This document shows positions 2,242 through 26,149 of a DNA stretch of 64,000 nucleotides, one piece after another (the stretch's first letter is position 1; the number at the start of each line of letters is the position of its first letter). The notes under the pieces were generated by a model. It worked only from the letters and a program-made list of their open reading frames with translations. It was not told where the DNA came from and made no database searches. Made by a program: the position numbers and the translations under genes. Location: positions 11,563 through 75,562 of the IMG/VR virus record IMGVR_UViG_3300025087_000053. One strand, written 5' to 3'. Origin of the DNA: a virus.

Positions 2242-3252
2242 TTATTCTCCCTGTTTGTAAGCTTCATCGACGTGAAGCTCCATTTTGACAAATTTGCGTT
2301 TTCCAAATGTTTTTTGCAACGCCTCATGCCACAACTTGTAAGCACGCTGAGCCGTGTCGTCCACCGGAATCTGCACCAGATCGACCATGGGGCTTGACGA
2401 TAAAGAACGTCCTGTAATATCTCCCAACAACTCTCGAACAGTAGCCCTAATTATCTCAAGATCTACTAGAGGTGTAGCAATTTTGTTACATTTCACCTCC
2501 CATGGCAGATACTTGTATGTTCTAATTGGCAACGTAGAAATCTTTTCATCTATTGGAACAGCAAACCACCAACTTCCCAACAAAGACACGCTGTGATCAG
2601 AAGGAGAAATAAAAACGGAATCAAGAGAAATATCTCCATGAACTATCTTAGCCCACTCCAAATAACACGCTATGTTGTGCAATCCACTCCCAATCCATGC
2701 TACATGAACTGGTTCAATCTTTCCCTTGTAATAGCTAAAAACTTCTCGCAACGGAACAAGGTTTTTTGACTTTGGAATCGTTAAAAGAAGTTTATCATCT
2801 TCAAGTTCAAATACTTTTATTGACTCTGGAAGGGTTTTCGACATCTCTTTCTTCATTTTATCATCTGCATAATGAAGATTTTTTATAGTTCTCTCTGCTC
2901 TTTTTGAAAATTGTTCGAACTTCTTATCAATTAAATATGAAATGTGGGTATTCGCAATATAAACGTACCCCAATTCGAAGCTTCTGCTAACTAGGTATTT
3001 GAACCTAATACTCCCACCACCCTTCTTTTTCAAATCAAGAAAACTAGAACCTCTCCATTTCCCAGTTTCTAGAAGCCTTACTGCTTCTTTATAAAGCTCC
3101 GTAATATGTGACATTACCTTGGCATCACCAGTTGTTTTATCAGGATGCCAATAAAGAGCCAATTCGTGAAATTTCTTTTTTGCTTCTGCAAGATCACCTG
3201 GAAACAAAGACTCTGGAACAGTGAACTCAAGAATTTGTTTTTCTGTTTCCAT
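2242..3252 (-). CDS. J-domain fused to a protein kinase-like domain
   Basis: N-terminal AKKKFHELALYWHPDK (HPD motif); C-terminal IVHGDISLDSVFI catalytic-loop-like motif; no DFG. Confidence 0.75.
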   Translation of the reverse strand: METEKQILEFTVPESLFPGDLAEAKKKFHELALYWHPDKTTGDAKVMSHITELYKEAVRLLETGKWRGSSFLDLKKKGGGSIRFKYLVSRSFELGYVYIANTHISYLIDKKFEQFSKRAERTIKNLHYADDKMKKEMSKTLPESIKVFELEDDKLLLTIPKSKNLVPLREVFSYYKGKIEPVHVAWIGSGLHNIACYLEWAKIVHGDISLDSVFISPSDHSVSLLGSWWFAVPIDEKISTLPIRTYKYLPWEVKCNKIATPLVDLEIIRATVRELLGDITGRSLSSSPMVDLVQIPVDDTAQRAYKLWHEALQKTFGKRKFVKMELHVDEAYKQGE

Positions 3253-3479
3253 TTTTAATTCTTTCTGCTCGCACTTCTTTTCCTACGCGCCCGACTGCTT
3301 CTGTAACATATAATCTACCCAAGCATCCGCCATCTTGGCAGCCAACATTACAGACCATAAGACAGGAATTTCAATATAGTCTGGAAGAAAACCCTCTGGC
3401 CACACTCCTGTCTTTTGCACGATATCATATGCCCGTATATGCTCATAATTGTGAGATCAAACCAATCATAAAGAGACAT
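3227..3479 (-). pseudogene. Small hypothetical gene with a frameshift after codon ~9
   Basis: GGAGG RBS + ATG 3479 (MSLYDWFDL), then another frame continues NYEHIRAYDIVQKTGVWPEGFLP...TNS-stop; span 253 nt = 3n+1. Could be a sequencing error. Confidence 0.5.
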
Positions 3480-3497
3480 TTTATCCTCCGTTTCCTA

Positions 3498-3525
3498 CGC
3501 GCCCGGAGAGGCTTGAACTCCCGAC
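3498..3525 (-). pseudogene. 3' half of a tRNA-Arg-like gene (T arm + acceptor strand)
   Basis: GTC GGGAG TTCAAGC CTCTC CGGGCGC G; its acceptor strand is complementary to the 5' fragment at 5054-5070. Confidence 0.7.
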
Positions 3526-3572
3526 TTGTATTTTTTATACAAAAGCGAGTTCGACTCCACTATTTATAATAA

Positions 3573-3648
3573 CGCCCTGGGCAGGGCTCGAACCTGCATT
3601 ATTCCAATTACGGTACACACGGGTAGAAGCCGTGGCCGTTACCAGGGC
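3573..3648 (-). tRNA. D-armless tRNA-like RNA, anticodon UCU (Arg), long variable region
   Basis: GCCCTGG/CCAGGGC acceptor, CACGG-CTTCTAC-CCGTG anticodon arm, GCAGG-TTCGAGC-CCTGC T arm; only 7 nt where the D arm should be. Confidence 0.75.
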
Positions 3649-3666
3649 AATAGGAGAACACCATCC

Positions 3667-5053
3667 CGTTCGAGATTTAAACCACGAAATCATCAGCCGA
3701 CATGAGTTTAAGCTCTCTCCTCTTATTAAAAATAATGAATTTACAAAAAAGTCAACATATTTCACTTCGTGTGCTATATTTATAATGTGTCGAAACGTCT
3801 TTCTACAACTTCTGAAAAAAGCCTCCCTATAACTATCCTCAGTCAACGTATTCGACTCGTTCCAAATAACATCCAAACAACCTTTTTCGAACGTTGTGCT
3901 GGTGCATCTCGCTTCGTCTACAACTGGGGATTGGACCGTTGGAAAACTCAATACGAAGCCGAAGGAAAGCCCTCTTGGATCAGTCTTAACACCGAGCTGA
4001 ATGCCTGCAAAAACACCGAATTTCCTTGGATGGCAAAATTGCCGTGGGCTGTTGCTGCAACGGCGTTGTCCAACCTCGGCAATGCTTTCTCCAACTTCTT
4101 TCGCCGTATCAAATCTGGCCAAAAGCCCGGCTATCCCCGCTTCAAGTCGAAGAAACAAAGCAAAATGTCCTTCGCCGTTGAAGGTCGAGCCCTTCGCTTT
4201 GACGGCCGAAGAGTTAAGATTCCCAAGCTTGGTTGGGTCCGCACTCGACAAGAGATAAGATTTCCTGGTAAAATCCTGTCCGCTCACTTTACGAAACATG
4301 CCGGTCATTGGTACGTCTCGGTCCAAATTCAAGTCTCCGACTCCTGGTCCTATCCCCATCGCTGCGAAACCCAAGAAGCGGTTGGAGTGGATCTCGGGCT
4401 CCGAGACCTTGCCGTGCTTTCTACGGGAGAACGGGTCGAGGCTCCACGCATTCTGCGTGCTCATGAAACCAGACTGCGACGATTCAACAAGGAAATGTCT
4501 CGTCGCGTCATAGGAGGAAGAAATTGGCAGAAGACTAAAACGAAGCTTGGACGGCTGCATGAACGGATTTCCAACATCCGCAAAGACGTAACGCATAAGC
4601 TTACCGCTCGGCTGGTCCGAGACTTTCGTCGGATTGGAATCGAGGACTTGAACGTCAAGGGGATGATGGCAAATCATCATCTTGCCAAGTCGATTGCGGA
4701 TGCTGCCTTGTCGGAAATCAGGCGTCAGCTTATGTATAAAGCTCCGCTTGCCGGCAGTGAAATCATTGTTGCCGACCGCTGGTTCCCTTCTTCCAAGCTG
4801 TGTTCCGACTGTGGAACAAGACGAGAAGGACCGTTGCCTTTGTCCATCCGAGAATGGGTTTGTGAGGTTTGTGGGGTTGTCCACGACCGAGACATCAACG
4901 CAGCCATTAATCTTAGAACCGCCGCCCTGGCGGGGATAGCCTGCTGTCAAGAAAGCTCTGGTTCTGGCCCTACGGCCAGAACGAAACTTCCTCATGGGCA
5001 GGAATTGAGCAACTGTGTTAACTAATGGGTTCATGGTTTAAGTCTCAAATGGG
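3667..5053 (+). mobile_element. IS607-type TnpB-only element, copy 1 (E1, 1387 bp, no transposase)
   Basis: Inverted ends cgTTCGAGATTTAAACC ... GGTTTAAGTCTCAAAtgGG; same length as copy 4; removing it rejoins a tRNA D-loop (GCTCAGTT|GGAT). Confidence 0.9.
3769..5025 (+). CDS. tnpB: RNA-guided endonuclease TnpB
   Basis: HTH_OrfB-like N-terminus, RuvC GVDLG / IEDL / DRDINAA, CxxC..CxxC zinc finger; true start may be GTG 3787. Confidence 0.95.
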   Translation: MCYIYNVSKRLSTTSEKSLPITILSQRIRLVPNNIQTTFFERCAGASRFVYNWGLDRWKTQYEAEGKPSWISLNTELNACKNTEFPWMAKLPWAVAATALSNLGNAFSNFFRRIKSGQKPGYPRFKSKKQSKMSFAVEGRALRFDGRRVKIPKLGWVRTRQEIRFPGKILSAHFTKHAGHWYVSVQIQVSDSWSYPHRCETQEAVGVDLGLRDLAVLSTGERVEAPRILRAHETRLRRFNKEMSRRVIGGRNWQKTKTKLGRLHERISNIRKDVTHKLTARLVRDFRRIGIEDLNVKGMMANHHLAKSIADAALSEIRRQLMYKAPLAGSEIIVADRWFPSSKLCSDCGTRREGPLPLSIREWVCEVCGVVHDRDINAAINLRTAALAGIACCQESSGSGPTARTKLPHGQELSNCVN

Positions 5054-5070
5054 AACTGAGCTACGGGCGC
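4915..5070 (+). ncRNA. Predicted omegaRNA of E1 (scaffold + flank-derived guide)
   Basis: Block conserved in all five element copies, overlapping the tnpB 3' end and right end, as known for TnpB omegaRNAs. Confidence 0.75.
5054..5070 (-). pseudogene. 5' fragment of tRNA-Arg-like gene interrupted by E1
   Basis: GCGCCCGTAGCTCAGTT is a canonical tRNA 5' acceptor strand plus D-stem start. Confidence 0.8.
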
Positions 5071-5113
5071 TAATATTAAAAAGCATACCCTCCCGTATCG
5101 TCTTTCACTTCTG

Positions 5114-5497
5114 TCACTTGGGAAGAACCCCCAGCTTTATAAACCCAACCGGACCAACTCCGTTAGAATGGCTCCTCACTGGTTTCACAATTTCTTTTTC
5201 TTCTCTTAGCACTTCAACGTGAATCGAACCAATCACCACATACCCACCACCAAACTTCTTTCTTGCCTCTCGGGTGAAAAGAAGCTCATATCGAGAATTG
5301 CCAACGTCCTTCGAAAAAACCTTGAAAGCCTTACCCTTATTGGCCCTTTCAAAAGCTTTCGCAATGCAAGAACCGATATCCTTGTCTTCCGTCTTCATTG
5401 CATAAAGCGGCCGAGACATACTAAAATACTTGTCAACTCCACACTCGAAATAGATCCTGTTAGACATTTTAATTATCCTTTCTTGTCCAAATTCCAT
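5114..5497 (-). CDS. Hypothetical protein
   Basis: ORF in operon orientation; probable start at MSNR. Confidence 0.55.
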   Translation of the reverse strand: MEFGQERIIKMSNRIYFECGVDKYFSMSRPLYAMKTEDKDIGSCIAKAFERANKGKAFKVFSKDVGNSRYELLFTREARKKFGGGYVVIGSIHVEVLREEKEIVKPVRSHSNGVGPVGFIKLGVLPK

Positions 5498-6225
5498 TTC
5501 TTGACGACTTCTGGCATTTCTTTGTTATAGTGGTCGGGGTCGTGTTGGTAAAGAATCTTCACGACCTCAACATGGCCTTTTGCCGAAGCCCATCGGATGG
5601 CATGGTTGTCATCGGCCGTTGGATCAACCCTCTTGTCGGAAAGAAGAATCTTCACGACCTCAACATGGCCTCTTTCCGAAGCCCATAGGATGGCATAGTT
5701 GTTATCGGCCGTTGGATCAACCCTCTTGTCGGAAAGAAGAATCTTCACGACCTCAACATGGCCTTTTGCCGAAGCCCATCGGATGGCATGGTTGTCATCG
5801 GCCGTTGGATCAACCCTCTTGTCGGAAAGAAGAATCTTCACGACCTCAACATGGCCGCAACTCGAAGCATCTTGGATGGCAGCGTTGTCATCGGCCGTTA
5901 GATCAACCCCGCAATCCAAAAGAGTTCTCCACGTCGAAGCTTTCTTCAAAGACATCCGAGGACCAAGAAGAATCTTGTTTGCCTTCCACTTGCTCCCACC
6001 GGGGTCCTTATAAATCTGCAAATCCTCGTCGTTTGGAAACGTCACCTCTCTGATCCACGGGCCGTAATTAAGGAATTCGCAGATATGCTTTTCGTCGGAG
6101 AAATATATTCCTCCGGAAGTACAGGTTCCTTGAGGATTAAAGGGCAAGACATCGACATTAAGCCCCGTCTTGTAATGCATTCTGTTGTGGCGCTCTTTTT
6201 CATTAAGAATCTTGAAGAACGGCAT
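5473..6225 (-). CDS. Ankyrin repeat protein A (4 repeats, conserved N-terminal domain)
   Basis: 31-aa repeats N.AIRWAS..GHVEVVKILL; RBS AAGGA; upstream promoter. Confidence 0.92.
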   Translation of the reverse strand: MPFFKILNEKERHNRMHYKTGLNVDVLPFNPQGTCTSGGIYFSDEKHICEFLNYGPWIREVTFPNDEDLQIYKDPGGSKWKANKILLGPRMSLKKASTWRTLLDCGVDLTADDNAAIQDASSCGHVEVVKILLSDKRVDPTADDNHAIRWASAKGHVEVVKILLSDKRVDPTADNNYAILWASERGHVEVVKILLSDKRVDPTADDNHAIRWASAKGHVEVVKILYQHDPDHYNKEMPEVVKKWNLDKKG

Positions 6226-6254
6226 GGTGATGTCCTTTGTTAGAAGATGGAGCC

Positions 6255-6283
6255 ATCTTATCTTATTTTTGTTGTCTTGTCAA
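6255..6283 (-). promoter_or_regulatory. Sigma70-type promoter of ankyrin gene A
   Basis: TTGACA-17-TAAGAT. Confidence 0.7.
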
Positions 6284-6499
6284 GCCCTCAACATATTTAC
6301 ATCCATCGGAATACCCATCGTCGTATCCATCGTCGTATCCCGCATTCCTCGCTGAAACTTTTGCAGAGTCAATACACATTTTGCAAGGAAGAAGATAATA
6401 GCTACCCGACTCCCCGGATTCTTGGACTTCCAAAACACTAGCACAAACTCTACAATAAAACTTTCTTTCCATCTTCTTCCTCCTCCTCAAACAAAACAA
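6263..6499 (-). CDS. Small hypothetical protein (CxxC pairs, GYDDG repeats)
   Basis: ORF; probable start MERKFYC. Confidence 0.55.
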   Translation of the reverse strand: MFCLRRRKKMERKFYCRVCASVLEVQESGESGSYYLLPCKMCIDSAKVSARNAGYDDGYDDGYSDGCKYVEGLTRQQK

Positions 6500-6836
6500 A
6501 TTTAGAATGAAATATCTTGATAGTTTCTTCTGTAAAAGGAATCTTTAATCCAACCAACTTAGATTCTCCGCTAAGGGGATCTTTCTTAGTTCTTCTAAAA
6601 TAATGAGCCATAACCCTATGTCCGAAAAGATATTCTTTTTTGTCTTTTATCGCAATCCTAGACTTAAACTTGTTGTTAAATTTAGGATAAAGTCTGTAAT
6701 TTGTAAAGTGTCTTTCACCCTCATCTGTTGGTGTCGCCATTCCGATCTCACAATAGCACAAAATATCTCCCAACGAGTTTATTTTATCTTGAAATTCTTC
6801 ATGAAACAACACTCCAAATGGAAAAAAGTAAAACAT
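6450..6836 (-). CDS. Hypothetical protein
   Basis: Tightly packed ORF. Confidence 0.55.
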   Translation of the reverse strand: MFYFFPFGVLFHEEFQDKINSLGDILCYCEIGMATPTDEGERHFTNYRLYPKFNNKFKSRIAIKDKKEYLFGHRVMAHYFRRTKKDPLSGESKLVGLKIPFTEETIKIFHSKFVLFEEEEEDGKKVLL

Positions 6837-7040
6837 TTAAAGCAAATCCCAAAGGTTCTTATAAAGAACATCAGAAATATTCTTTGGTAACTCTTCTTGT
6901 GTTTCAGCCAAGTGCTTTATAAACTTCAAGAACTTTTCGTCTACTTCCTTGGCGATTTGCTCTGCCTGCCTTTTCGCAAGGTGTTTAAGCCGCCTTTCAT
7001 ATTGCTTTTTTGATATACGGAGATTGCGTTTTCTTCTCAT
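6837..7040 (-). CDS. Hypothetical basic protein
   Basis: Tightly packed ORF. Confidence 0.5.
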   Translation of the reverse strand: MRRKRNLRISKKQYERRLKHLAKRQAEQIAKEVDEKFLKFIKHLAETQEELPKNISDVLYKNLWDLL

Positions 7041-7045
7041 AATAT

Positions 7046-7201
7046 TTAAACCAGCCTATTCATCGCCCCGTTCCTATTGAGAAGCTTATCTCCAATAGCA
7101 ACAATTAAAGGATTTGGTTCCATTACTTGACCAACACCAGAACGAAAAACTTTATCCAAAGCCGCACCTTCGTTCCCTGGTCCCATTGCCCAACAAGACA
7201 T
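7046..7201 (-). CDS. Small hypothetical protein (51 aa)
   Basis: Manual translation MSCWAMGPGNEGAALDKVF...NRLV; fills the gap; ATG is 2 nt from the E2 left end. Confidence 0.45.
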   Translation of the reverse strand: MSCWAMGPGNEGAALDKVFRSGVGQVMEPNPLIVAIGDKLLNRNGAMNRLV

Positions 7202-7203
7202 AA

Positions 7204-7495
7204 TCTTTGAGACTTAACCACGACACGAACCCGTTAGTTAACATGGGGTTAAGCCTTCTCCTTCTGTTAAAAAGAACGAATTTACAAAAAAGGAGTAAAT
7301 TCCACTTCGTATGCTCTATTTATAGTATGTCGAAGTTTTATACTACGACGATAAAAAGAACCGCCGCCCTGGCGGGGATAGCCTGCTGTCAAGAAAGCTC
7401 TGGTTCTGGCCTTACGGCCAGAACGAAACTTTTTCATGGGCAGGAATCGAGCAGCCGTATTAACTAAGGAGTTCATGGTTTAAGTCTCGAAGGGG
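7204..7495 (+). mobile_element. Mini TnpB element E2 (left end + promoter + omegaRNA, tnpB deleted), 292 bp
   Basis: Homologous to both ends of E1/E4; internal deletion joins tnpB codon ~10 to AGAACCGCCGCC. Confidence 0.9.
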
Positions 7496-7500
7496 AAAAT

Positions 7501-7532
7501 AAAGAACCGGCCTAGATCGTGCGCCGGTTCTT
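7501..7532. terminator. Hairpin, probable bidirectional intrinsic terminator
   Basis: AAAGAACCGGC...GCCGGTTCTTT inverted repeat with A/T-rich flanks. Confidence 0.6.
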
Positions 7533-7631
7533 TCTAAGTCGCCTACTTTTCAAGGCAGTTTGTTTTTTTACTAGATAAAGTTGTTTTTTTGTGAGCCCAG
7601 CGAGAGCATCACCACCTTTCCTTTTAGGATT

Positions 7632-11028: not shown

Positions 11029-11824
11029 ATAGATATTTCTCTTTCACAACAAATTGCTTCTTTGTCTTGGGAGAAATCACCAGATAAGGTCGACTTCCCT
11101 TCGACACAGATTGAATTGTTTGATCTTTATTATCCAAAACGATAACATCTTCTGTTGTAATCTTGGTTTTATCCTGCGAAGCGTAATACTTTCTGTTCTT
11201 ATTAAAATTGTTCGGACGATAAACCCTAACTAACTGTCCCTCTTCAAACTTCGGAGGTTCAAGATAAACTCTCCACACTCTATTAGACCACTTGTTATGA
11301 CAAATGTAAAGATAGTCTGAGTAGTTTTGCGGAGGACGAATAAAATATTTATTACTCGACGCATCCCAAAGTTGTGTTTTAGAGAAAATGCTTCTAGCGT
11401 TGGGATATTGAGCGCACAAACTCCAGTTTGCAGACTTGTTGCCAGCACCCAGCGAGAAATTATAATACCCTAAACAAGCTTCCCACCGTTCCTTACATCT
11501 TTCGGTGTTTTCTTCAAACCATTTAGAAAAGCCTTTACCGCCAAAGCAATCATATACCTTTTCTCTTGAGAACAAATCGTTTGCCATTACACTAATAAAC
11601 GAAAGTTGCCCAACGGAAAGAGTTGTGATTCTCGCTTTGCTAAGCAGATCAAGATAATAGCTTTGATATTTATTTTTCCAAATCTCCCAATGAGGAGACT
11701 TGTTTCCTTTTAGGTTTTCATTTAGAGTCTTCAAATACTTAAGGTTTTGTTTTGTTACCTCATCCAAACTAGACGGATATTCCGGCTCAATTGGCATGTT
11801 CTTAAAAAGAATCGGATTAAACAT
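11003..11824 (-). CDS. Hypothetical protein
   Basis: 273-aa ORF overlapping its neighbours. Confidence 0.7.
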   Translation of the reverse strand: MFNPILFKNMPIEPEYPSSLDEVTKQNLKYLKTLNENLKGNKSPHWEIWKNKYQSYYLDLLSKARITTLSVGQLSFISVMANDLFSREKVYDCFGGKGFSKWFEENTERCKERWEACLGYYNFSLGAGNKSANWSLCAQYPNARSIFSKTQLWDASSNKYFIRPPQNYSDYLYICHNKWSNRVWRVYLEPPKFEEGQLVRVYRPNNFNKNRKYYASQDKTKITTEDVIVLDNKDQTIQSVSKGSRPYLVISPKTKKQFVVKEKYLYDTKDIGT

Positions 11825-16319: not shown

Positions 16320-17018
16320 TTAAATAATCTCGTCGATTATCCCATACTCAAGAGCTTTTTGTGCAGAGAAGTAGTGGTTTCTCACCTTAAGAAACTTTTT
16401 TAAGTCTCTCTCGGTAAGCTTTGAATTTTCCAGAAGAATTCTGCAATAGGTATCTTGCAAAACAGTAATTTCTGCAGAATGTTCTTTCATTGCCGGGTAT
16501 GAACCTTCAAAAGAGGCGATTACATTATGAATCATAAATCTACAGTTTTCAGTAGCTCTTCTCTTTGTACCGCCAATTAAAAGTATTGTAGCAGCAGATT
16601 GACATGTGCCAATAGCAGTAGTGATTATTTCAAATCCCTGTCTCTTTATGATCTGCATCATGTCATAAACACCCAAAGTTCCCTCCACTATCCCACCCGT
16701 AGAAGAAACTAAAATCTCAAAAGGCTCTTTTACTACTTCTTCTTCTCCGGTTTCTTCGTTTTTGTAAAGATATAGACCTTTTGCTGCGAGGGAAAGCATT
16801 TGAAACGTTGCGCTAGCACAAACGTCTTCTGTTATCTGTCCGTATACACCAACAACTCTTAAAGGATTAGAGTCTTCCGGAGAAACAAAAAGTCCCTTAT
16901 CCTCATCATCCTCGCCCTGCTCACAATGGTCGCATAGCTTAGTATAAACCTTTTTATTTACTTCGCATACACTACGAAGTTTATTTGAATTTTTCATGAA
17001 TTCTCCGGGTTCGGTCAT
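16320..17018 (-). CDS. clpP: ClpP-like protease
   Basis: SSTGG, IGTCQSAAT (catalytic Ser), RFMIHN (His), YFSAQKALEYGIIDEI. Confidence 0.9.
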   Translation of the reverse strand: MTEPGEFMKNSNKLRSVCEVNKKVYTKLCDHCEQGEDDEDKGLFVSPEDSNPLRVVGVYGQITEDVCASATFQMLSLAAKGLYLYKNEETGEEEVVKEPFEILVSSTGGIVEGTLGVYDMMQIIKRQGFEIITTAIGTCQSAATILLIGGTKRRATENCRFMIHNVIASFEGSYPAMKEHSAEITVLQDTYCRILLENSKLTERDLKKFLKVRNHYFSAQKALEYGIIDEII

Positions 17019-17044: not shown

Positions 17045-17743
17045 TCACTTAGTCTTGGAAGATTTGCGAGACTTCGCTTCTTTGACGGCAGAACGAAGCT
17101 TTGAAACCACTCTGCGATAAACCTCGTTAATAACCTCTTCGGAAACCTCTCCTTCAGTAACAGGAGCGTCTTCTTCGGTCACAACTTCGGCGCCAGCAGC
17201 AGCAGGAGGTGCTTCGGCTTCTTTAATCTTGCCCTTTTGAACCATTTTGCCTTTGCCAAGCTTTTCTTGCATCACAGGAGGCTCTTCCTCTTCTTCCGCT
17301 TCGGGAGCCGGGGGCAGGCCACCTTCGCCACCTTCGGGAGCCGGGGGAGGCATCTCGCCGCCTTCGCCACCTTCCATTTCGCCACCTGCGCCACCGTCTA
17401 CTTGGACATTAACATTCGCTCCAGACTTAGCAGAAATAACGTCTGCGATGTCTTGGATTAGTTCTGCTACGGCCTCTTCGGGCAGACCAGCAAGAGCGCT
17501 GTCTTCTACAGGAGCGCCTTCCTCGGGCGGCATATCGGAGGGCATGTCACCTGCGGGAGCGGGCGGAGGAGGCTCGGCACCGGCATCAACTGGGGGCATA
17601 TCGCCACCTTCGGGCGCGCCTTCCTCGTCCTCTTCGTCCTCTTCTTTCAGACGAGCCAGAAAGCCTTCAGTCAGTTTCTCTTGACCAGCCAGACGCATGA
17701 ATCTAATAGTTTCATCTCTTTCCAAAAGTAGCTTTTTAGCCAT
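17045..17743 (-). CDS. Acidic, Pro/Gly/Glu-rich protein, possibly head/scaffold-associated
   Basis: Low-complexity composition, upstream late-promoter-like motif, LLE/LxE motifs. Confidence 0.6.
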   Translation of the reverse strand: MAKKLLLERDETIRFMRLAGQEKLTEGFLARLKEEDEEDEEGAPEGGDMPPVDAGAEPPPPAPAGDMPSDMPPEEGAPVEDSALAGLPEEAVAELIQDIADVISAKSGANVNVQVDGGAGGEMEGGEGGEMPPPAPEGGEGGLPPAPEAEEEEEPPVMQEKLGKGKMVQKGKIKEAEAPPAAAGAEVVTEEDAPVTEGEVSEEVINEVYRRVVSKLRSAVKEAKSRKSSKTK

Positions 17744-17802: not shown

Positions 17803-18099
17803 TCAAAATTGACGAAACTCTTTGAAATCTCGTTTTTTTCTTAATTTTAAGTACGACCTATCCAAAATCCTAGATATTGCAGTATAATGAATTCCTAATC
17901 TTTTTGATATCTGTTGCAAAGTCATAGGCCCGTTTTCATTTATCGAAAAATAAGTACAGTTATATTCTTCTGGAAATTCTATCCACATCCTACAACTTTC
18001 AGAAGAACACGGACACTCTTCGGAATGACACTTTTGTACACATTCTGGTAAATCCCTTAAATTATTGATCTTTTTCCTCGTCTGCATCATCATTTTCAT
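17803..18099 (-). CDS. Cys-rich protein with sigma70 region-4-like HTH
   Basis: GPMTLQQISKRLGIHYTAISRILDRSYLKL. Confidence 0.7.
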   Translation of the reverse strand: MKMMMQTRKKINNLRDLPECVQKCHSEECPCSSESCRMWIEFPEEYNCTYFSINENGPMTLQQISKRLGIHYTAISRILDRSYLKLRKKRDFKEFRQF

Positions 18100-18756: not shown

Positions 18757-20838
18757 TTATAGCTTTCTAAATGCTTCATTTATCTTCTTGTTCGTAGAAA
18801 AACCCCACTTCTCATCTTTGGTAACGACGCCAACATAAGCTGAGTTTTCAACAAGAGGATAATAGTCTTTCACATTCCAGCACTTAATTTTGTTCTCTTC
18901 ACCCGTATTATCAACCACCGTAAGAACAGCATAATCTTTCTTGTTTGCTAAGGTTTGCTTAAACTCTACGCTCTTTAATACAAACCAAACATATTTGCCC
19001 ACTTCCCATTCGCTCACCGGAACGGCGCCAAGAGACTTTAAAGCTTTTACGTCTTTAGGTGAAACAATTTGGTCAACAGGATAAACTCCTGTTAACTGAG
19101 AGCGATAAATAAGTCTTTCTTTTTCCGCGAAGGAGCCTTCTGGAGAATACAATTTAATATTTTCTTCAAAGTCTTCTTGGTCTTTAGGACGAATAACCGC
19201 CACACATGACCAGAAATGCTTGTCGCCAGTAAACCTTTCGTCCATAAGACTATCTAATGCGCCGCTTCTTGTCAAGACATCTAGATACTTTTTATTTAGC
19301 TTCTTGCCCCAAATGTCTTCTTTAAAAAGCACATCTTCAATCTTATTGTAGGGACGACAATAGGAGATTTGTTCTACAGCGGTCTTGCCCATCCCCAGCA
19401 AAGAGAACAGAGGTTGAATAAGTTCTTTTTTGTTGTCTGGAGACACATCCCAATCATATAAAGAGGACTTATTTATGTCCACAGAAGCCATAGTGAACCC
19501 AATAGATTTAGCATCAGATATCGCTTTTGCTTTTGTTTTTTCTGGCTCGCTGTTGAGGAAGGCGGCAACCCATTCGCTTTGATAATAAGTAAAAAGCCAA
19601 GCACACTGATAAGAAAGGATGGAATATCCGCAACTGTGGGACAAATTAAATCCATAATTGTTGAATAATTCCAAGGACTTCCATAATTCTTCTAAAGCAT
19701 TACCTTCAATCCCCTTTTCAAGACCACCCTCGACAAACTTCTTATAAATCTTCTCTTTCTTTTCTGCGTTGTTCCCTATGAGACCCTTTTTTGTCAAGAG
19801 TTTTCTAAGAGAGTTTCCTTCCATTAGAGAAACGTCTTTCCCTATTGCAACAGCCAACTTAGCAATTTGCTCTTGATAAATAACAAAGCCATAGGTACTT
19901 TTTAAAACAGGCTCCACACAAGGATGAAGGTAGGTAACGGTTTCTGGATGCCTTTTCGCTTTTAAATACTTCTTGTCTATGTTCGAACCCAGAGGTCCCG
20001 GCCGATATATCGAAGTTACAGCAGACAAATCCTCAATAGATGTGGGTTTAACTTTCACGCAAAAGGATTGCGCGCCGTCGTTAGAAAATTGGAAAATACC
20101 TAAATTTAAATTCTTCTTCTTGTGGAAAACAGTTTCCCATACTTTCTGATCGTCGAAGTTGATTACGTCGGGGTGCAAGTTTCTATTATAAAACTCTATA
20201 ATTTCTTTTATCCCACAAGAGAGTTTTCTTTTGTGAAGAATATGTTTGATAGTATCTTCTATAATTGTTAAAGTTTGCAATCCTAAAATATCAAATTTAA
20301 TAAACCCCAAAGGTTCTAGATGCCGTACCGCTTGCCCTTCAGACCAAGGACTTTGGAAAGAACCCTTGGCGCTAATAAGAGGCATTTTTTCATGTAAGTT
20401 ATCAGACCAAACAAGTCCCGCCGCATGTTGTCCAATAGACTTCACCATGCCTTGTAAATTTTCTATGTGAGATGCTACAGAGGGATATTTTCTTAAAAAG
20501 GCTTGGAAAGAAGGACTATATGCCTTAACTTCTTCATAAGTAGGTTCGTAAACTCCGGCAACTTGCTCATGATCCTGTTTGGCTTTTGGTAAAGCCTCGT
20601 CGACCATTTTTGTTGTTACTTCATTAACTTCTTGAAAAGATACATTATAAAATTTTGATATGTCCTTAACAAGAGACTTCAAGTGAAATGTGCCATAGTT
20701 TGAAATAAGAGTTGCGCTCTTTTCTCCCCACTCTTCAATAAGAAAAGTCTTAAACTCTGCTGCACGAGAAAAATCGCAGTTGTGAACAATAACAGTCTTA
20801 TAACTCTCTTTAAAAGAGTGATGTTTAATGATTTCCAT
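18757..20838 (-). CDS. dnaE: DNA polymerase III alpha, C-terminal half, preceded by a 20-aa C-intein
   Basis: MEIIKHHSFKESYKTVIVHN|CDF; GQHAAG, KFDILGL, GIFQF, RPGP, IYQEQ, YGFNLSH, C-terminal OB fold. Confidence 0.93.
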   Translation of the reverse strand: MEIIKHHSFKESYKTVIVHNCDFSRAAEFKTFLIEEWGEKSATLISNYGTFHLKSLVKDISKFYNVSFQEVNEVTTKMVDEALPKAKQDHEQVAGVYEPTYEEVKAYSPSFQAFLRKYPSVASHIENLQGMVKSIGQHAAGLVWSDNLHEKMPLISAKGSFQSPWSEGQAVRHLEPLGFIKFDILGLQTLTIIEDTIKHILHKRKLSCGIKEIIEFYNRNLHPDVINFDDQKVWETVFHKKKNLNLGIFQFSNDGAQSFCVKVKPTSIEDLSAVTSIYRPGPLGSNIDKKYLKAKRHPETVTYLHPCVEPVLKSTYGFVIYQEQIAKLAVAIGKDVSLMEGNSLRKLLTKKGLIGNNAEKKEKIYKKFVEGGLEKGIEGNALEELWKSLELFNNYGFNLSHSCGYSILSYQCAWLFTYYQSEWVAAFLNSEPEKTKAKAISDAKSIGFTMASVDINKSSLYDWDVSPDNKKELIQPLFSLLGMGKTAVEQISYCRPYNKIEDVLFKEDIWGKKLNKKYLDVLTRSGALDSLMDERFTGDKHFWSCVAVIRPKDQEDFEENIKLYSPEGSFAEKERLIYRSQLTGVYPVDQIVSPKDVKALKSLGAVPVSEWEVGKYVWFVLKSVEFKQTLANKKDYAVLTVVDNTGEENKIKCWNVKDYYPLVENSAYVGVVTKDEKWGFSTNKKINEAFRKL

Positions 20839-21319
20839 GTTTCCTCTTGTTGTCTATCTCAAGTACAAATCTCTTTCTTTCTTCGGTAATAGTATTAAAA
20901 ACTTCTATTACATCCAATGGAACTATTTGAAAACTTTTTGTTTCTCCCAATAAAGAAATGTCGGTTAAAGCTATTCTTTCTTTTTTTTGTTTTGACATCT
21001 TTTCTATTTCCAGCACCACTACTTCCCCGCCAATAGATTTCAAAGAATCACCAATTTTTAATTCTTTTGTCTTAGTAACCCTGTCACTTGAAAGAATAAA
21101 CTTGTGCGTTTCGCCCGCAATAATAATACCCAAAATATCTTCTTCTACTTGTTGTACTACTATTGAAAATACTTTTTCTTTCGGCCGCACATTTCTACTA
21201 AAAACAGCAGAAACCACGGAGTTCTCTCCAAACTCGTTTATAACAACATCTCCTATTAGAACATCTCGAAGTTTTTTATATCCCCCAGAAACTCGTACTT
21301 CGTGCCCGCTCCAAAGACA
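20779..21319 (-). mobile_element. Split intein in dnaE (IntN 164 aa at 21319-20828; IntC 20 aa at 20838-20779)
   Basis: PDID|CLWSG block A; ETHKF block B His; TDISL...SF block F; VHN|C block G in the next ORF. Confidence 0.88.
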
Positions 21320-22705
21320 ATCTATGTCGGGACTCGAACCTTCGGATAAAAATCTTTCAAACAAAAGACCATATTTAATAGGGTCGACATGTGTTATGTT
21401 CAACACATACGCAATTAAAGAACCTCCAGCAGAGCCCCGCCCTGGTCCAGTCAGACAAAAATTCCTGCTTTTGTCTATTATCTTTTTCATTGCCAGAAAA
21501 TATTTACAATATCCTCGGTCTTTTACAACCCTAAGCTCATGTTTCAGTCTGTCTACATATTCTTTCTTTTCATACAGCCCCTTGGCCTTTAGACCAGCCA
21601 CTGCCCTCCTTGCTAAAGCCCCTTCTTCAGTTTGGCCAGTGGGGACAACAGAGGAAGGTAGTTTATAGCTTCTGTCCATATCGACATTCTCTATCCTGTT
21701 CATAGCAATGTCATATGTGTTATCGAGACTCTTTTCTATCGTGTCATCTTCATAAAAAGAATTATGTTTAAGAGAATATTTTTTATAATCTCTCCACATT
21801 TCTTCTGCAGATTTTGGATACAACTCATAACCGATTTCTTCTACGGTTTCTGGTAGCTTTGCCTGCTCGCTGTCTTTAGAGTTTAACCAACCCAACTTCT
21901 TGTAAAGAAATCTATCTTTCCACAACTCGGGCCTTGGGTAGTGTGCGTCAGCAGTAGAAACCAGCTTAAACCCCATCTCAACTGAAAGCTGTATTATTAG
22001 TTGGTTTAAATCATGCTGTTCAACAAAGTCATTCCACTGTAATTCTCCGTACCATCTATCTTCAAAGATATCCAACATAGCTTGCGTTGTCTTGCGCATC
22101 TCTAAAAGAATATAGTCTGTTCCCTTTTCGTAATTATCAAAAAAGTTAGAAGAATAAACTCCGCCCACACAAGCACTTGTTGCAATAATGCCTTTGTTAT
22201 ATGAACGAAGCATATCGTAATCTATTCTGGGGTATCTATAGAAGTTTTCTCTCTTGTAGGAGTTGTAGACGAGTTGAAATAGATTTTTAAGCCCGTCTTG
22301 ATTTTGAGCCAAAAGAAGTATATGGCTTCTTTTATTAATTTCTGTCTTCTTTGTCCTTGAAAACCTCTTTAGATCGTCTTCAATAACCGTTGCGTTTATC
22401 TCTTCTTCTTTCTTCTTTTTTAATTCTTTGTTCTCTTTGGCCGTTTCGTATGCCGTTCTCCACTTCTTAAAAGAAGGAATAATATACGCCTCAATTCCAT
22501 ATATTGGTTTTACTATCTTCCCCTCTTTTTTCATTTCTTCTGCGGCAAATAGTTGGTAGGCCATGGAGTTCATGTTACCATGGTTCGTGATGGCGAGGGC
22601 TTCACCCCCCGTCTCGTGGACTCTTTCCATAAATTGTTTGGGATAACCGAATCCGTCAAACACCGAGAACGTATCGTGGCAATGAAGATTTACAAATTTT
22701 ACCAT
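20825..22705 (-). CDS. dnaE: DNA polymerase III alpha, N-terminal half (PHP + palm start) fused to N-intein
   Basis: FVNLHCH, AITNHG, TADAHY, GPGRGSAGGSL, LLFERFL, PDID. Confidence 0.93.
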   Translation of the reverse strand: MVKFVNLHCHDTFSVFDGFGYPKQFMERVHETGGEALAITNHGNMNSMAYQLFAAEEMKKEGKIVKPIYGIEAYIIPSFKKWRTAYETAKENKELKKKKEEEINATVIEDDLKRFSRTKKTEINKRSHILLLAQNQDGLKNLFQLVYNSYKRENFYRYPRIDYDMLRSYNKGIIATSACVGGVYSSNFFDNYEKGTDYILLEMRKTTQAMLDIFEDRWYGELQWNDFVEQHDLNQLIIQLSVEMGFKLVSTADAHYPRPELWKDRFLYKKLGWLNSKDSEQAKLPETVEEIGYELYPKSAEEMWRDYKKYSLKHNSFYEDDTIEKSLDNTYDIAMNRIENVDMDRSYKLPSSVVPTGQTEEGALARRAVAGLKAKGLYEKKEYVDRLKHELRVVKDRGYCKYFLAMKKIIDKSRNFCLTGPGRGSAGGSLIAYVLNITHVDPIKYGLLFERFLSEGSSPDIDCLWSGHEVRVSGGYKKLRDVLIGDVVINEFGENSVVSAVFSRNVRPKEKVFSIVVQQVEEDILGIIIAGETHKFILSSDRVTKTKELKIGDSLKSIGGEVVVLEIEKMSKQKKERIALTDISLLGETKSFQIVPLDVIEVFNTITEERKRFVLEIDNKRKHGNH

Positions 22706-25435: not shown

Positions 25436-26149
25436 TTATACTTCATCTTTCTCGTACTTTCTGTCTAACTCTTTTATAAAAGAGCTTAGCCCAGGTATTA
25501 TTTCTTTTACAAAAGAAACAAATTCTTCTATGCTTAAACTTCCTTTTAAAGAATTAATTGCGAAACAACACAAAACAATGTTTTCTTTTGTATATCCTTT
25601 TGTTGGGTCTATTCTGTCTATGCTTACACTATCGTGTTGAAATATACCAGAATTACGACTAATGCTTTTACCTGTGTAAAAGCATTTTCCTTTTTGTTTT
25701 AGGAATAAATCGTAAATATCATCTTTTTCTAAAGTACAAATAATGTTTTTCCTCCTGCACGAGAAAGATATTGAAGATATCCTTTGTCTAAAGTAAGCTT
25801 TTAAATCGCTTTTCATCTTAAAAGACTTCTTTTTATACCCTGCTTGAACACAACTGTAATTTGCAAAGCACTCTTTACAAACCTTCTGGTACCCTGTTAA
25901 GGTATGTCTGTTTTTCGAGAAATCTAATAATGGTAGAAATTTCTTACACTTATAACACCATTTTTCCCCATTTTGTATAGAAGGGCAAAGGTGCCTTCTT
26001 TGCGAAAATTTATATTCCTTTATCGCTTCAATCCCACATCTTCGACACTTTAACCAAACAGGTTTGTGAGAGCCTTTTTTTAAGTCACCAGTAGAATAGC
26101 CGAATTCTTCTTTGGTCTTTTCTTCTAAAATTTCATACTCTCCATACAT
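25436..26149 (-). CDS. Free-standing HNH-type homing endonuclease
   Basis: Zn-finger N-terminus; QKGKCFYTG...SIDRIDPTKGYTKENIVLCCFAINSLKG. Confidence 0.8.
   Translation of the reverse strand: MYGEYEILEEKTKEEFGYSTGDLKKGSHKPVWLKCRRCGIEAIKEYKFSQRRHLCPSIQNGEKWCYKCKKFLPLLDFSKNRHTLTGYQKVCKECFANYSCVQAGYKKKSFKMKSDLKAYFRQRISSISFSCRRKNIICTLEKDDIYDLFLKQKGKCFYTGKSISRNSGIFQHDSVSIDRIDPTKGYTKENIVLCCFAINSLKGSLSIEEFVSFVKEIIPGLSSFIKELDRKYEKDEV

Follow-up and report, generated by a model that had tools for sequence, protein, structure and literature searches.

A phage DNA polymerase III alpha gene interrupted at its catalytic aspartates by a putative natural split intein with a 20-residue C-terminal piece

Introduction

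Natural split inteins generally consist of two pieces of about 100 and 35–40 residues (PMC10189870), and the work on fractured genes by Dassa et al. (2009) gives N-parts of 88–105 residues and C-parts of 33–54 residues (PMC2677866). Short intein pieces are accessible by peptide synthesis and hence allow site-specific labelling and semisynthesis of proteins. Shorter C-pieces are considered highly desirable (PMC2664965), and inteins that are split by nature usually behave better than artificial ones (PMC10189870). On the C-terminal side, the literature that we searched describes engineered cuts only (S11, Npu C15-type). Examples are the S11 split inteins Ssp GyrB S11, Ssp DnaX S11 and Ter DnaE3 S11 (Lin et al., 2013, PMC3620165; table in PMC11766414), a type of cut described as synthetic (PMC11766414), and the variants of Npu DnaE with a short C-terminal fragment (Aranko et al., 2009, PMC2664965). 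Here we describe a locus in a stretch of 64,000 nucleotides, referred to below as the window, which covers positions 11,563–75,562 of a 75.5-kb virus record from an uncultured phage (IMGVR_UViG_3300025087_000053; CheckV completeness 38%). The locus most probably encodes a class-1 intein that is inserted between both catalytic Asp residues of a phage DnaE (PDID/CDF, the slash marking the insertion point), is naturally split after block F and is, as we infer, spliced in trans. The intein's N- and C-terminal pieces are called IntN and IntC throughout.

Results

Gene structure of the split polymerase

Two overlapping genes on the minus strand of the window constitute the sole DNA polymerase III alpha subunit (PolIII alpha) recognized by Pfam in the 75.5-kb record. 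Open reading frame (ORF) A (20825–22705; 626 residues) encodes the DnaE N-half, comprising the PHP domain, the first part of the palm and IntN. Its N-extein (residues 1–462; 21320–22705) ends in ...SSPDID, the first catalytic Asp pair of PolIII alpha, and is followed by an IntN of 164 residues (residues 463–626; 20828–21319) that starts CLWSG with the Cys1 codon at 21317–21319, contains blocks A, B and F plus a 30-residue tail, and ends KRKHGNH before the TAA stop codon (20825–20827). The DnaE C-half is encoded by ORF B (18757–20838; 693 residues; ATG at 20836–20838). The 20 residues at its head, MEIIKHHSFKESYKTVIVHN (20779–20838), make up IntC and end in TVIVHN, a block G with the penultimate His and the terminal Asn. 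The next codon (20776–20778) specifies the +1 Cys, which is the first C-extein residue and stands between both catalytic Asp residues of PDID-C-DF. The C-extein (18757–20778 including the stop; 673 residues) begins CDFS and holds the remaining palm, the fingers and the HhH domain. The intein spans exactly 20779–21319, beginning with the Cys1 codon and ending with that of the terminal Asn.

ORF B is read in the +1 frame relative to ORF A, and the two share 14 nucleotides (20825–20838) that include the TAA stop of the former frame and the ATG of the latter. A Shine-Dalgarno-like AAGAGG (20843–20848) is located 4 nucleotides upstream of this ATG, within the 3' end of ORF A. In the ORF B frame a TAG occurs six codons upstream and no start codon lies in between; hence IntC cannot be longer than 20 residues. 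The overlap suggests translational coupling. Since promoter or terminator signals around the junction were no more frequent than expected by chance, ORF A and ORF B were read as co-transcribed. Pfam assigned a single DNA_pol3_alpha domain to the two ORFs jointly, with profile positions 19–106/107 in ORF A and 112–260 in ORF B, and a weak HINT match was obtained on ORF A residues 470–572. Taken together, these features are well beyond chance. A sequence-only reading of this DNA had described an upstream ORF that runs through ...SSPDID into a Cys-started 164-residue piece with blocks B and F, then a 14-nucleotide overlap, a Shine-Dalgarno-like motif before an ATG, and a second ORF with a short head before CDFS; all of these features were found in the sequence, in agreement to the base.

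The same gene pair was recovered repeatedly. The exact 626-residue ORF A and the exact 693-residue ORF B are each present on 13 contigs (JGI/IMG, Logan, ENA), the longest of 119,904 bases, and a fragment from one more ENA contig (P0001) has identical terminal residues.

A family of relatives broken at the same position

A search with the window IntN against 1.8 billion cluster representatives returned 27 matches. In all of these proteins the IntN domain lies at the C-terminus, save for the contiguous P0023 and two very long ones that match in part, and it is preceded by P-D-[IV]-D/C in every N-half but one fragment. About 25 divergent N-halves carry an IntN of 146–193 residues that is 26–39% identical to that of the window, and all stop after the same hairpin. 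Their ends follow a common order. Block F (D-I-x-V ... F-x-[IV]-x-P-F) is succeeded by a strand, a turn and a second strand that ends in Tyr, and then by a variable tail and the stop; the stop comes no earlier than two residues past this Tyr, which is often part of a Y-x-I-D-x-D motif. In the window, the tail past block F (20828–20917) is predicted by an AlphaFold2 model and by alignment to form a beta-hairpin (DVIEVF/ERKRFV) followed by LEIDNK, which fits the family motif.

The corresponding search for C-halves used the first 420 residues of the C-half from a 250-kb viral contig (L082, IMGVR_UViG_3300037086_000360) and concerned proteins of 231–735 residues. It revealed 11 other C-halves that open with 13–20 residues ending [FS]-[TS]-[LI]-C-S-H-N, followed by TDFEP. 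In L082 itself the IntN gene lies at 3740–4435, and the C-half starts with an ATG at 5549, preceded by GAAGG, and has a 16-residue IntC and then CDFE. Between the halves is a 360-residue ORF with a DUF7487 domain and a weak Vsr match; since a whole gene intervenes, these halves cannot be joined by frameshifting. The break that the sequence-only reading proposed to look for in related phages is thus kept among relatives, one of which has a gene between the halves. The L082 locus (2748–7573) has further peculiarities: its DnaE is distributed over at least three pieces, with a 336-residue ORF upstream, and the IntN-bearing ORF opens with the 38-residue IntC of a second split intein at a GRG/S site.

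The residues associated with class-1 splicing are present across this family. Cys1 (Cys463 in ORF A) is kept by every member that includes the N-terminal junction. According to the alignments, the block B His (His534 within GETHKF, 21098–21115, in the window) is invariant, as are Asp582, Phe592 and Pro596 of block F (IALTDISLLGETKSFQIVP, 20918–20974); several relatives show a canonical block F, D-x-T-V-E-D-N-H-x-F. All 12 short C-pieces and all three contiguous forms possess His-Asn followed by Cys, Thr or Ser at +1, the C-terminal junction reading VHN/C in the window and SHN/T, SHN/C or SHN/S elsewhere. Cys1, the block B His, the block F Asp, the HN plus nucleophile, a HINT fold in the computed model described below and the existence of empty alleles together make up the features of a class-1 intein. 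The proposal of a natural split intein with a break between blocks F and G and an ultra-short IntC in the PDIDxDF motif is therefore supported, at the level of sequence, by a reproducible junction and by relatives with the identical break.

Seven N-halves with long IntN tails (P0003, P0005, P0008, P0014, P0018, P0021 and P0022) share a Y-x-I-D-T-D motif, which resembles the DIDTD junction of empty-site DIDTDF alleles, and possess a conserved I-[RK]-[IL] strand immediately before the stop. These motifs could stand in for the absent last strand or be left over from a duplicated target site.

Further searches outlined the distribution of the element. No match to the window IntN or the L082 IntN was found by tblastn in 50,697 GenBank phage records, and hence no cultured phage is known to carry this split intein. 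Scans of metagenome and genome contig collections, and of viral contigs with P0002, yielded no further locus; a PDIDCLH pattern scan of viral contigs returned the L082 contig alone, and the matches in viral scans seeded with extein motifs were mostly relatives with an intein-free site.

Empty, contiguous and other alleles of the insertion site

The insertion site was also encountered in uninterrupted form. The 80 closest viral DnaE genes (about 50% identical) read YPDIDYDVSD, proteins of the P0157 type read DIDTDF, and a 390-kb viral contig (L091) reads PDIDSDCADREE, the PDIDSDC allele type among those without an intein. Contiguous inteins occupy the site in three cases. One (L090) is a canonical mini-intein with the usual 12 residues from block F to His-Asn, and the other two (P0023 and P0153) include the hairpin insertion. 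The contiguous P0153 and the split forms P0002 and P0152 belong to a single 90%-identity cluster, P0152 being present on 5 contigs, and the P0153 sequence diverges from the split forms directly after ...EEKLVS[PV]H.Y. Since such a cluster holds both forms, which part company at this point, the change between contiguous and split states must be recent in the P0153 lineage. An alignment by eye of the window IntC with the last 18 residues of the P0153 intein gave 8 matching positions of 18. The sequence-only reading had regarded a contiguous intein in relatives as a potential refutation of the split; those found here (P0153, P0023 and L090) display the unbroken form of the element and do not indicate mis-assembly of the window.

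Other arrangements were observed in DnaE genes of this group. The C-halves of the genes closest to that of the window (50–57% identical; P0031–P0037, P0039, P0049, P0052, P0055, P0059, P0068, P0072 and others) open with an intein-C-like leader of 35–40 residues ending in a conserved Asn. This Asn is followed by Glu, Pro, Arg or Asn, with no +1 nucleophile, and then by ...[TS]-x-M-PDID. The leader represents a different split, located a few residues upstream of PDID, and may be a non-splicing docking module. On L091 (3977–8339), where the PDID site is empty, several inteins, both split and contiguous, break DnaE into at least 4 ORFs. In L081 (about 6351–7083), a close DnaE relative, the PDID site is likewise without an intein, and an intein starting CFTDSVGILT follows ...GQVRS, a third insertion point in the palm.

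Predicted fold and position of the cut

To provide AlphaFold2 with a single chain, and solely for this purpose, both frames were read through via one four-base step (AGGA as Arg), which yields an open intein of 183 residues; 28 aligned sequences were supplied. The read-through model had a predicted local distance difference test (pLDDT) score of 86.5 and a predicted template modelling score of 0.83. The top Foldseek match was gp41-1 (6qaz; 25% identity), and VIA-align against 50 HINT-fold entries, nearly all of them inteins, gave Z values of 14–17 and a root mean square deviation (rmsd) of 1.6–2.6, with 1.7–2.0 for gp41-1, NpuDnaE and other inteins. The aligned range begins at model residue 4 and ends at residues 140–141, the Pro of F-Q-I-V-P, equivalent to residue 131 of 137 in NpuDnaE and to residue 120 in gp41-1. 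Since the alignment ends near NpuDnaE residue 131, IntN lacks the last strand only, and the window cut corresponds to the engineered S11 split site (PMC3620165; PMC11766414). Past residue 141 the model displays hairpin strands at 143–148 and 153–158 (pLDDT about 80), a low-confidence helix at the junction, and then a final strand, Y-K-T-V-I-V-H, with a pLDDT of about 60.

Two other assignments of the pieces were considered. HHSF or YNTSF of IntC as the true block F His-x-x-Phe was ruled out, as the canonical D-N-H-x-F is located inside the IntN of many relatives and the structural match of IntN extends to NpuDnaE residue 131. A third intein piece was ruled out as well, for L090 has nothing absent between blocks F and G.

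Proposed mechanism and alternative explanations

According to the proposed mechanism, ORF A and ORF B would be co-transcribed, and the internal Shine-Dalgarno sequence together with the 14-nucleotide overlap would probably couple their translation. The first 20 residues of ORF B would dock on IntN, perhaps aided by the post-block-F hairpin and tail, and complete the HINT fold. Cys1 would then form a thioester, Cys+1 would attack it and Asn20 would cyclise, and the exteins would be joined to give a 1135-residue polymerase reading PDIDCDF. A one-base change in the post-hairpin loop of a contiguous ancestor could have produced the window split, since removal of one base gives a 183-residue intein with a spacing between blocks F and G like that of P0153. 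The L082 type would have arisen, or be maintained, with an inserted endonuclease-like gene. It is possible, though doubtful, that the IntN hairpin and tail form a dedicated capture or placeholder module that lets the 13–20-residue peptide complete the fold efficiently, for instance by holding the groove of the missing last strand or occupying it for a time; candidate parts are the strand-turn-strand unit, the Y-x-I-D-x-D motif and, in long-tailed members, the terminal I-[RK]-[IL] strand. If so, these inteins would assemble by a route that differs from the 'capture and collapse' of canonical split inteins. The suggestion of the sequence-only reading that splicing might act as a post-translational switch for replication is not supported by the data, and neither is its view that polymerase activity strictly depends on splicing.

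Several observations weigh against a trans-splicing intein. Block B of the window has Gly in place of the usual Thr at the position three residues before the His (G-E-T-H); Thr or Ser is present there in about half of the relatives. Partner IntC pieces were identified for the window and the L082 subgroup only, leaving most N-halves without one. In the AlphaFold2 model the IntC part reached a pLDDT of only 58–67, and a model of the natural contiguous P0153 remained below 50 in the region between blocks F and G; given these low values, the modelled geometry of IntC docking is tentative. The C-halves closest to that of the window, with their Asn-ended leader and no Cys, Ser or Thr after it, are the fourth such point and bear directly on an explanation by docking. 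According to this explanation, the intein halves hold the polymerase halves together non-covalently; the enzyme would act as a heterodimer, with splicing slow or lacking. Docking at the polymerase loop might suffice for function, as the leaders of these near relatives would indicate, and a published account describes NrdA assembled via such interaction domains (PMC3045599). Among members that are only 26–39% identical, however, Cys1, the block B His, the block F Asp, the His-Asn pair and the +1 nucleophile are all kept. Conservation of every class-1 splicing residue is not expected for mere docking, and we hence regard a docking module alone as unlikely.

A programmed +1 ribosomal frameshift in the overlap, which would produce a contiguous, cis-splicing intein and render the ORF B start secondary or unused, agrees with the short overlap, with the +1 frame of ORF B, with the open 183-residue intein that a single four-base step creates and that was modelled as a HINT fold, and with the similar spacing between blocks F and G in contiguous relatives. 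The permitted stretch, GAC AAC AAG AGG AAA CAT GGA AAT CAT TAA, nevertheless has no known +1 slippery motif, as judged by comparison with prfB-type sites, the Shine-Dalgarno sequence and ATG are well placed for separate initiation of ORF B, about 25 other N-halves have their stop at the same place, and in L082 a whole gene separates the halves; frameshifting is thus very unlikely. The restoration of one frame by a single-base change would also be compatible with an assembly or sequencing error, or with a recently inactivated polymerase gene. Against this stand the identity of both proteins on 13 contigs from independent sources, the status of the pair as the sole PolIII alpha of the record, and the presence of the same break throughout a divergent family, so that an artefact or pseudogene is hardly credible. 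A naturally split intein that splices in trans is accordingly the explanation that we retain.

Neighbouring genes

Two nuclease genes, both free-standing, are found near the split polymerase. A 98-residue ORF (17803–18099, minus strand), about 0.7 kb downstream of ORF B and past one ORF, has a weak HNH-endonuclease match (phrog_7545, E-value 1e-4), and an endonuclease VII/HNH-like gene (25436–26149, minus strand) is situated 2.7 kb upstream of ORF A. The stretch at 17045–17743 (minus strand) encodes an acidic, low-complexity protein of 232 residues rich in Pro, Gly, Ala and Glu, which may be scaffold-like and adjoins a ClpP-like head maturation protease (16320–17018, phrog_94).

Discussion

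What is new in this locus is a natural C-terminal, S11-like split with an IntC of 13–20 residues, shared by a sizeable metagenomic family whose splicing we infer from conserved residues. The sequence-only reading placed breaks between blocks F and G mainly among engineered inteins. The literature that we searched, which did not extend to every journal, contained no natural intein with a short IntC and described the cut for laboratory-made inteins only. The family supplies at least 12 natural IntC peptides of 13–20 residues with matching IntN domains. If the IntN hairpin and tail do act as a capture module, these could be the first well-behaved inteins of natural origin with which synthetic peptides are ligated to protein C-termini. 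The contiguous and empty alleles found alongside the split ones offer material for studying how inteins become split. The position of the element is also of interest, as it is located between two catalytic Asp residues of a replicative polymerase and a survey found inteins 'rarely inserted at catalytic residues' (PMC4760082).

Among inteins of known structure, gp41-1 (PDB 6qaz) is the best sequence-aware structural match to the model (24–25% identity, Z 16.7, rmsd 1.8 over 121 residues), although it resides in another host protein and has the canonical split site. The cyanobacterial split DnaE intein (Ssp, Npu) shares with that of the window the PolIII alpha host, the class-1 Cys1 and Cys+1, and two separate genes. 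It differs in being inserted in the fingers, at point a of Novikova et al. (PMC4760082), in being divided between blocks B and F, at the endonuclease site, into pieces of about 102–123 and 36 residues, and in having its genes at separate loci; with 16–18% identity, the two are related by fold only. In the canonical arrangement the break falls between blocks B and F, and blocks F and G share an IntC of about 35–50 residues; in the window, block F is part of IntN and IntC contains block G only.

The fractured genes of Dassa et al. resemble the present family in that phage-type replication genes are broken inside an intein. Their full layout is seen in L082, where a free-standing Vsr-like gene separates the halves and a second split intein lies upstream, whereas the window has a 14-nucleotide overlap and no gene between the halves. 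In that work, one of the three DnaE loci likewise contains a second intein's C-part and another one a Vsr-like gene (PMC2677866), and a locus of the L082 type may therefore have been met by these authors without recognition of the tiny IntC.

AceL-TerL, GOS-TerL, VidaL and PolB16 OarG (PMC10189870) are, like the intein of the window, natural, very asymmetric and metagenomic, and they are valued for a short piece that can be synthesised. Their short piece is N-terminal (15–37 residues), and the window intein is the mirror image, with a short C-piece and an IntN of 164 residues. In the position of the break, the closest parallels are the engineered S11 inteins and the short-IntC variants of Npu, which like the intein of the window are cut after the second block F strand and before the last one, so that IntN is a near-complete HINT domain and block G lies in the small C-piece. 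These were made in the laboratory from contiguous or canonically split inteins, with an IntC of 6 residues in the S11 type, whereas the window family is natural, its IntC has 13–20 residues with a leader of 7–14 residues, and its IntN carries an extra hairpin and tail of 13–58 residues that canonical mini-inteins such as L090 do not possess.

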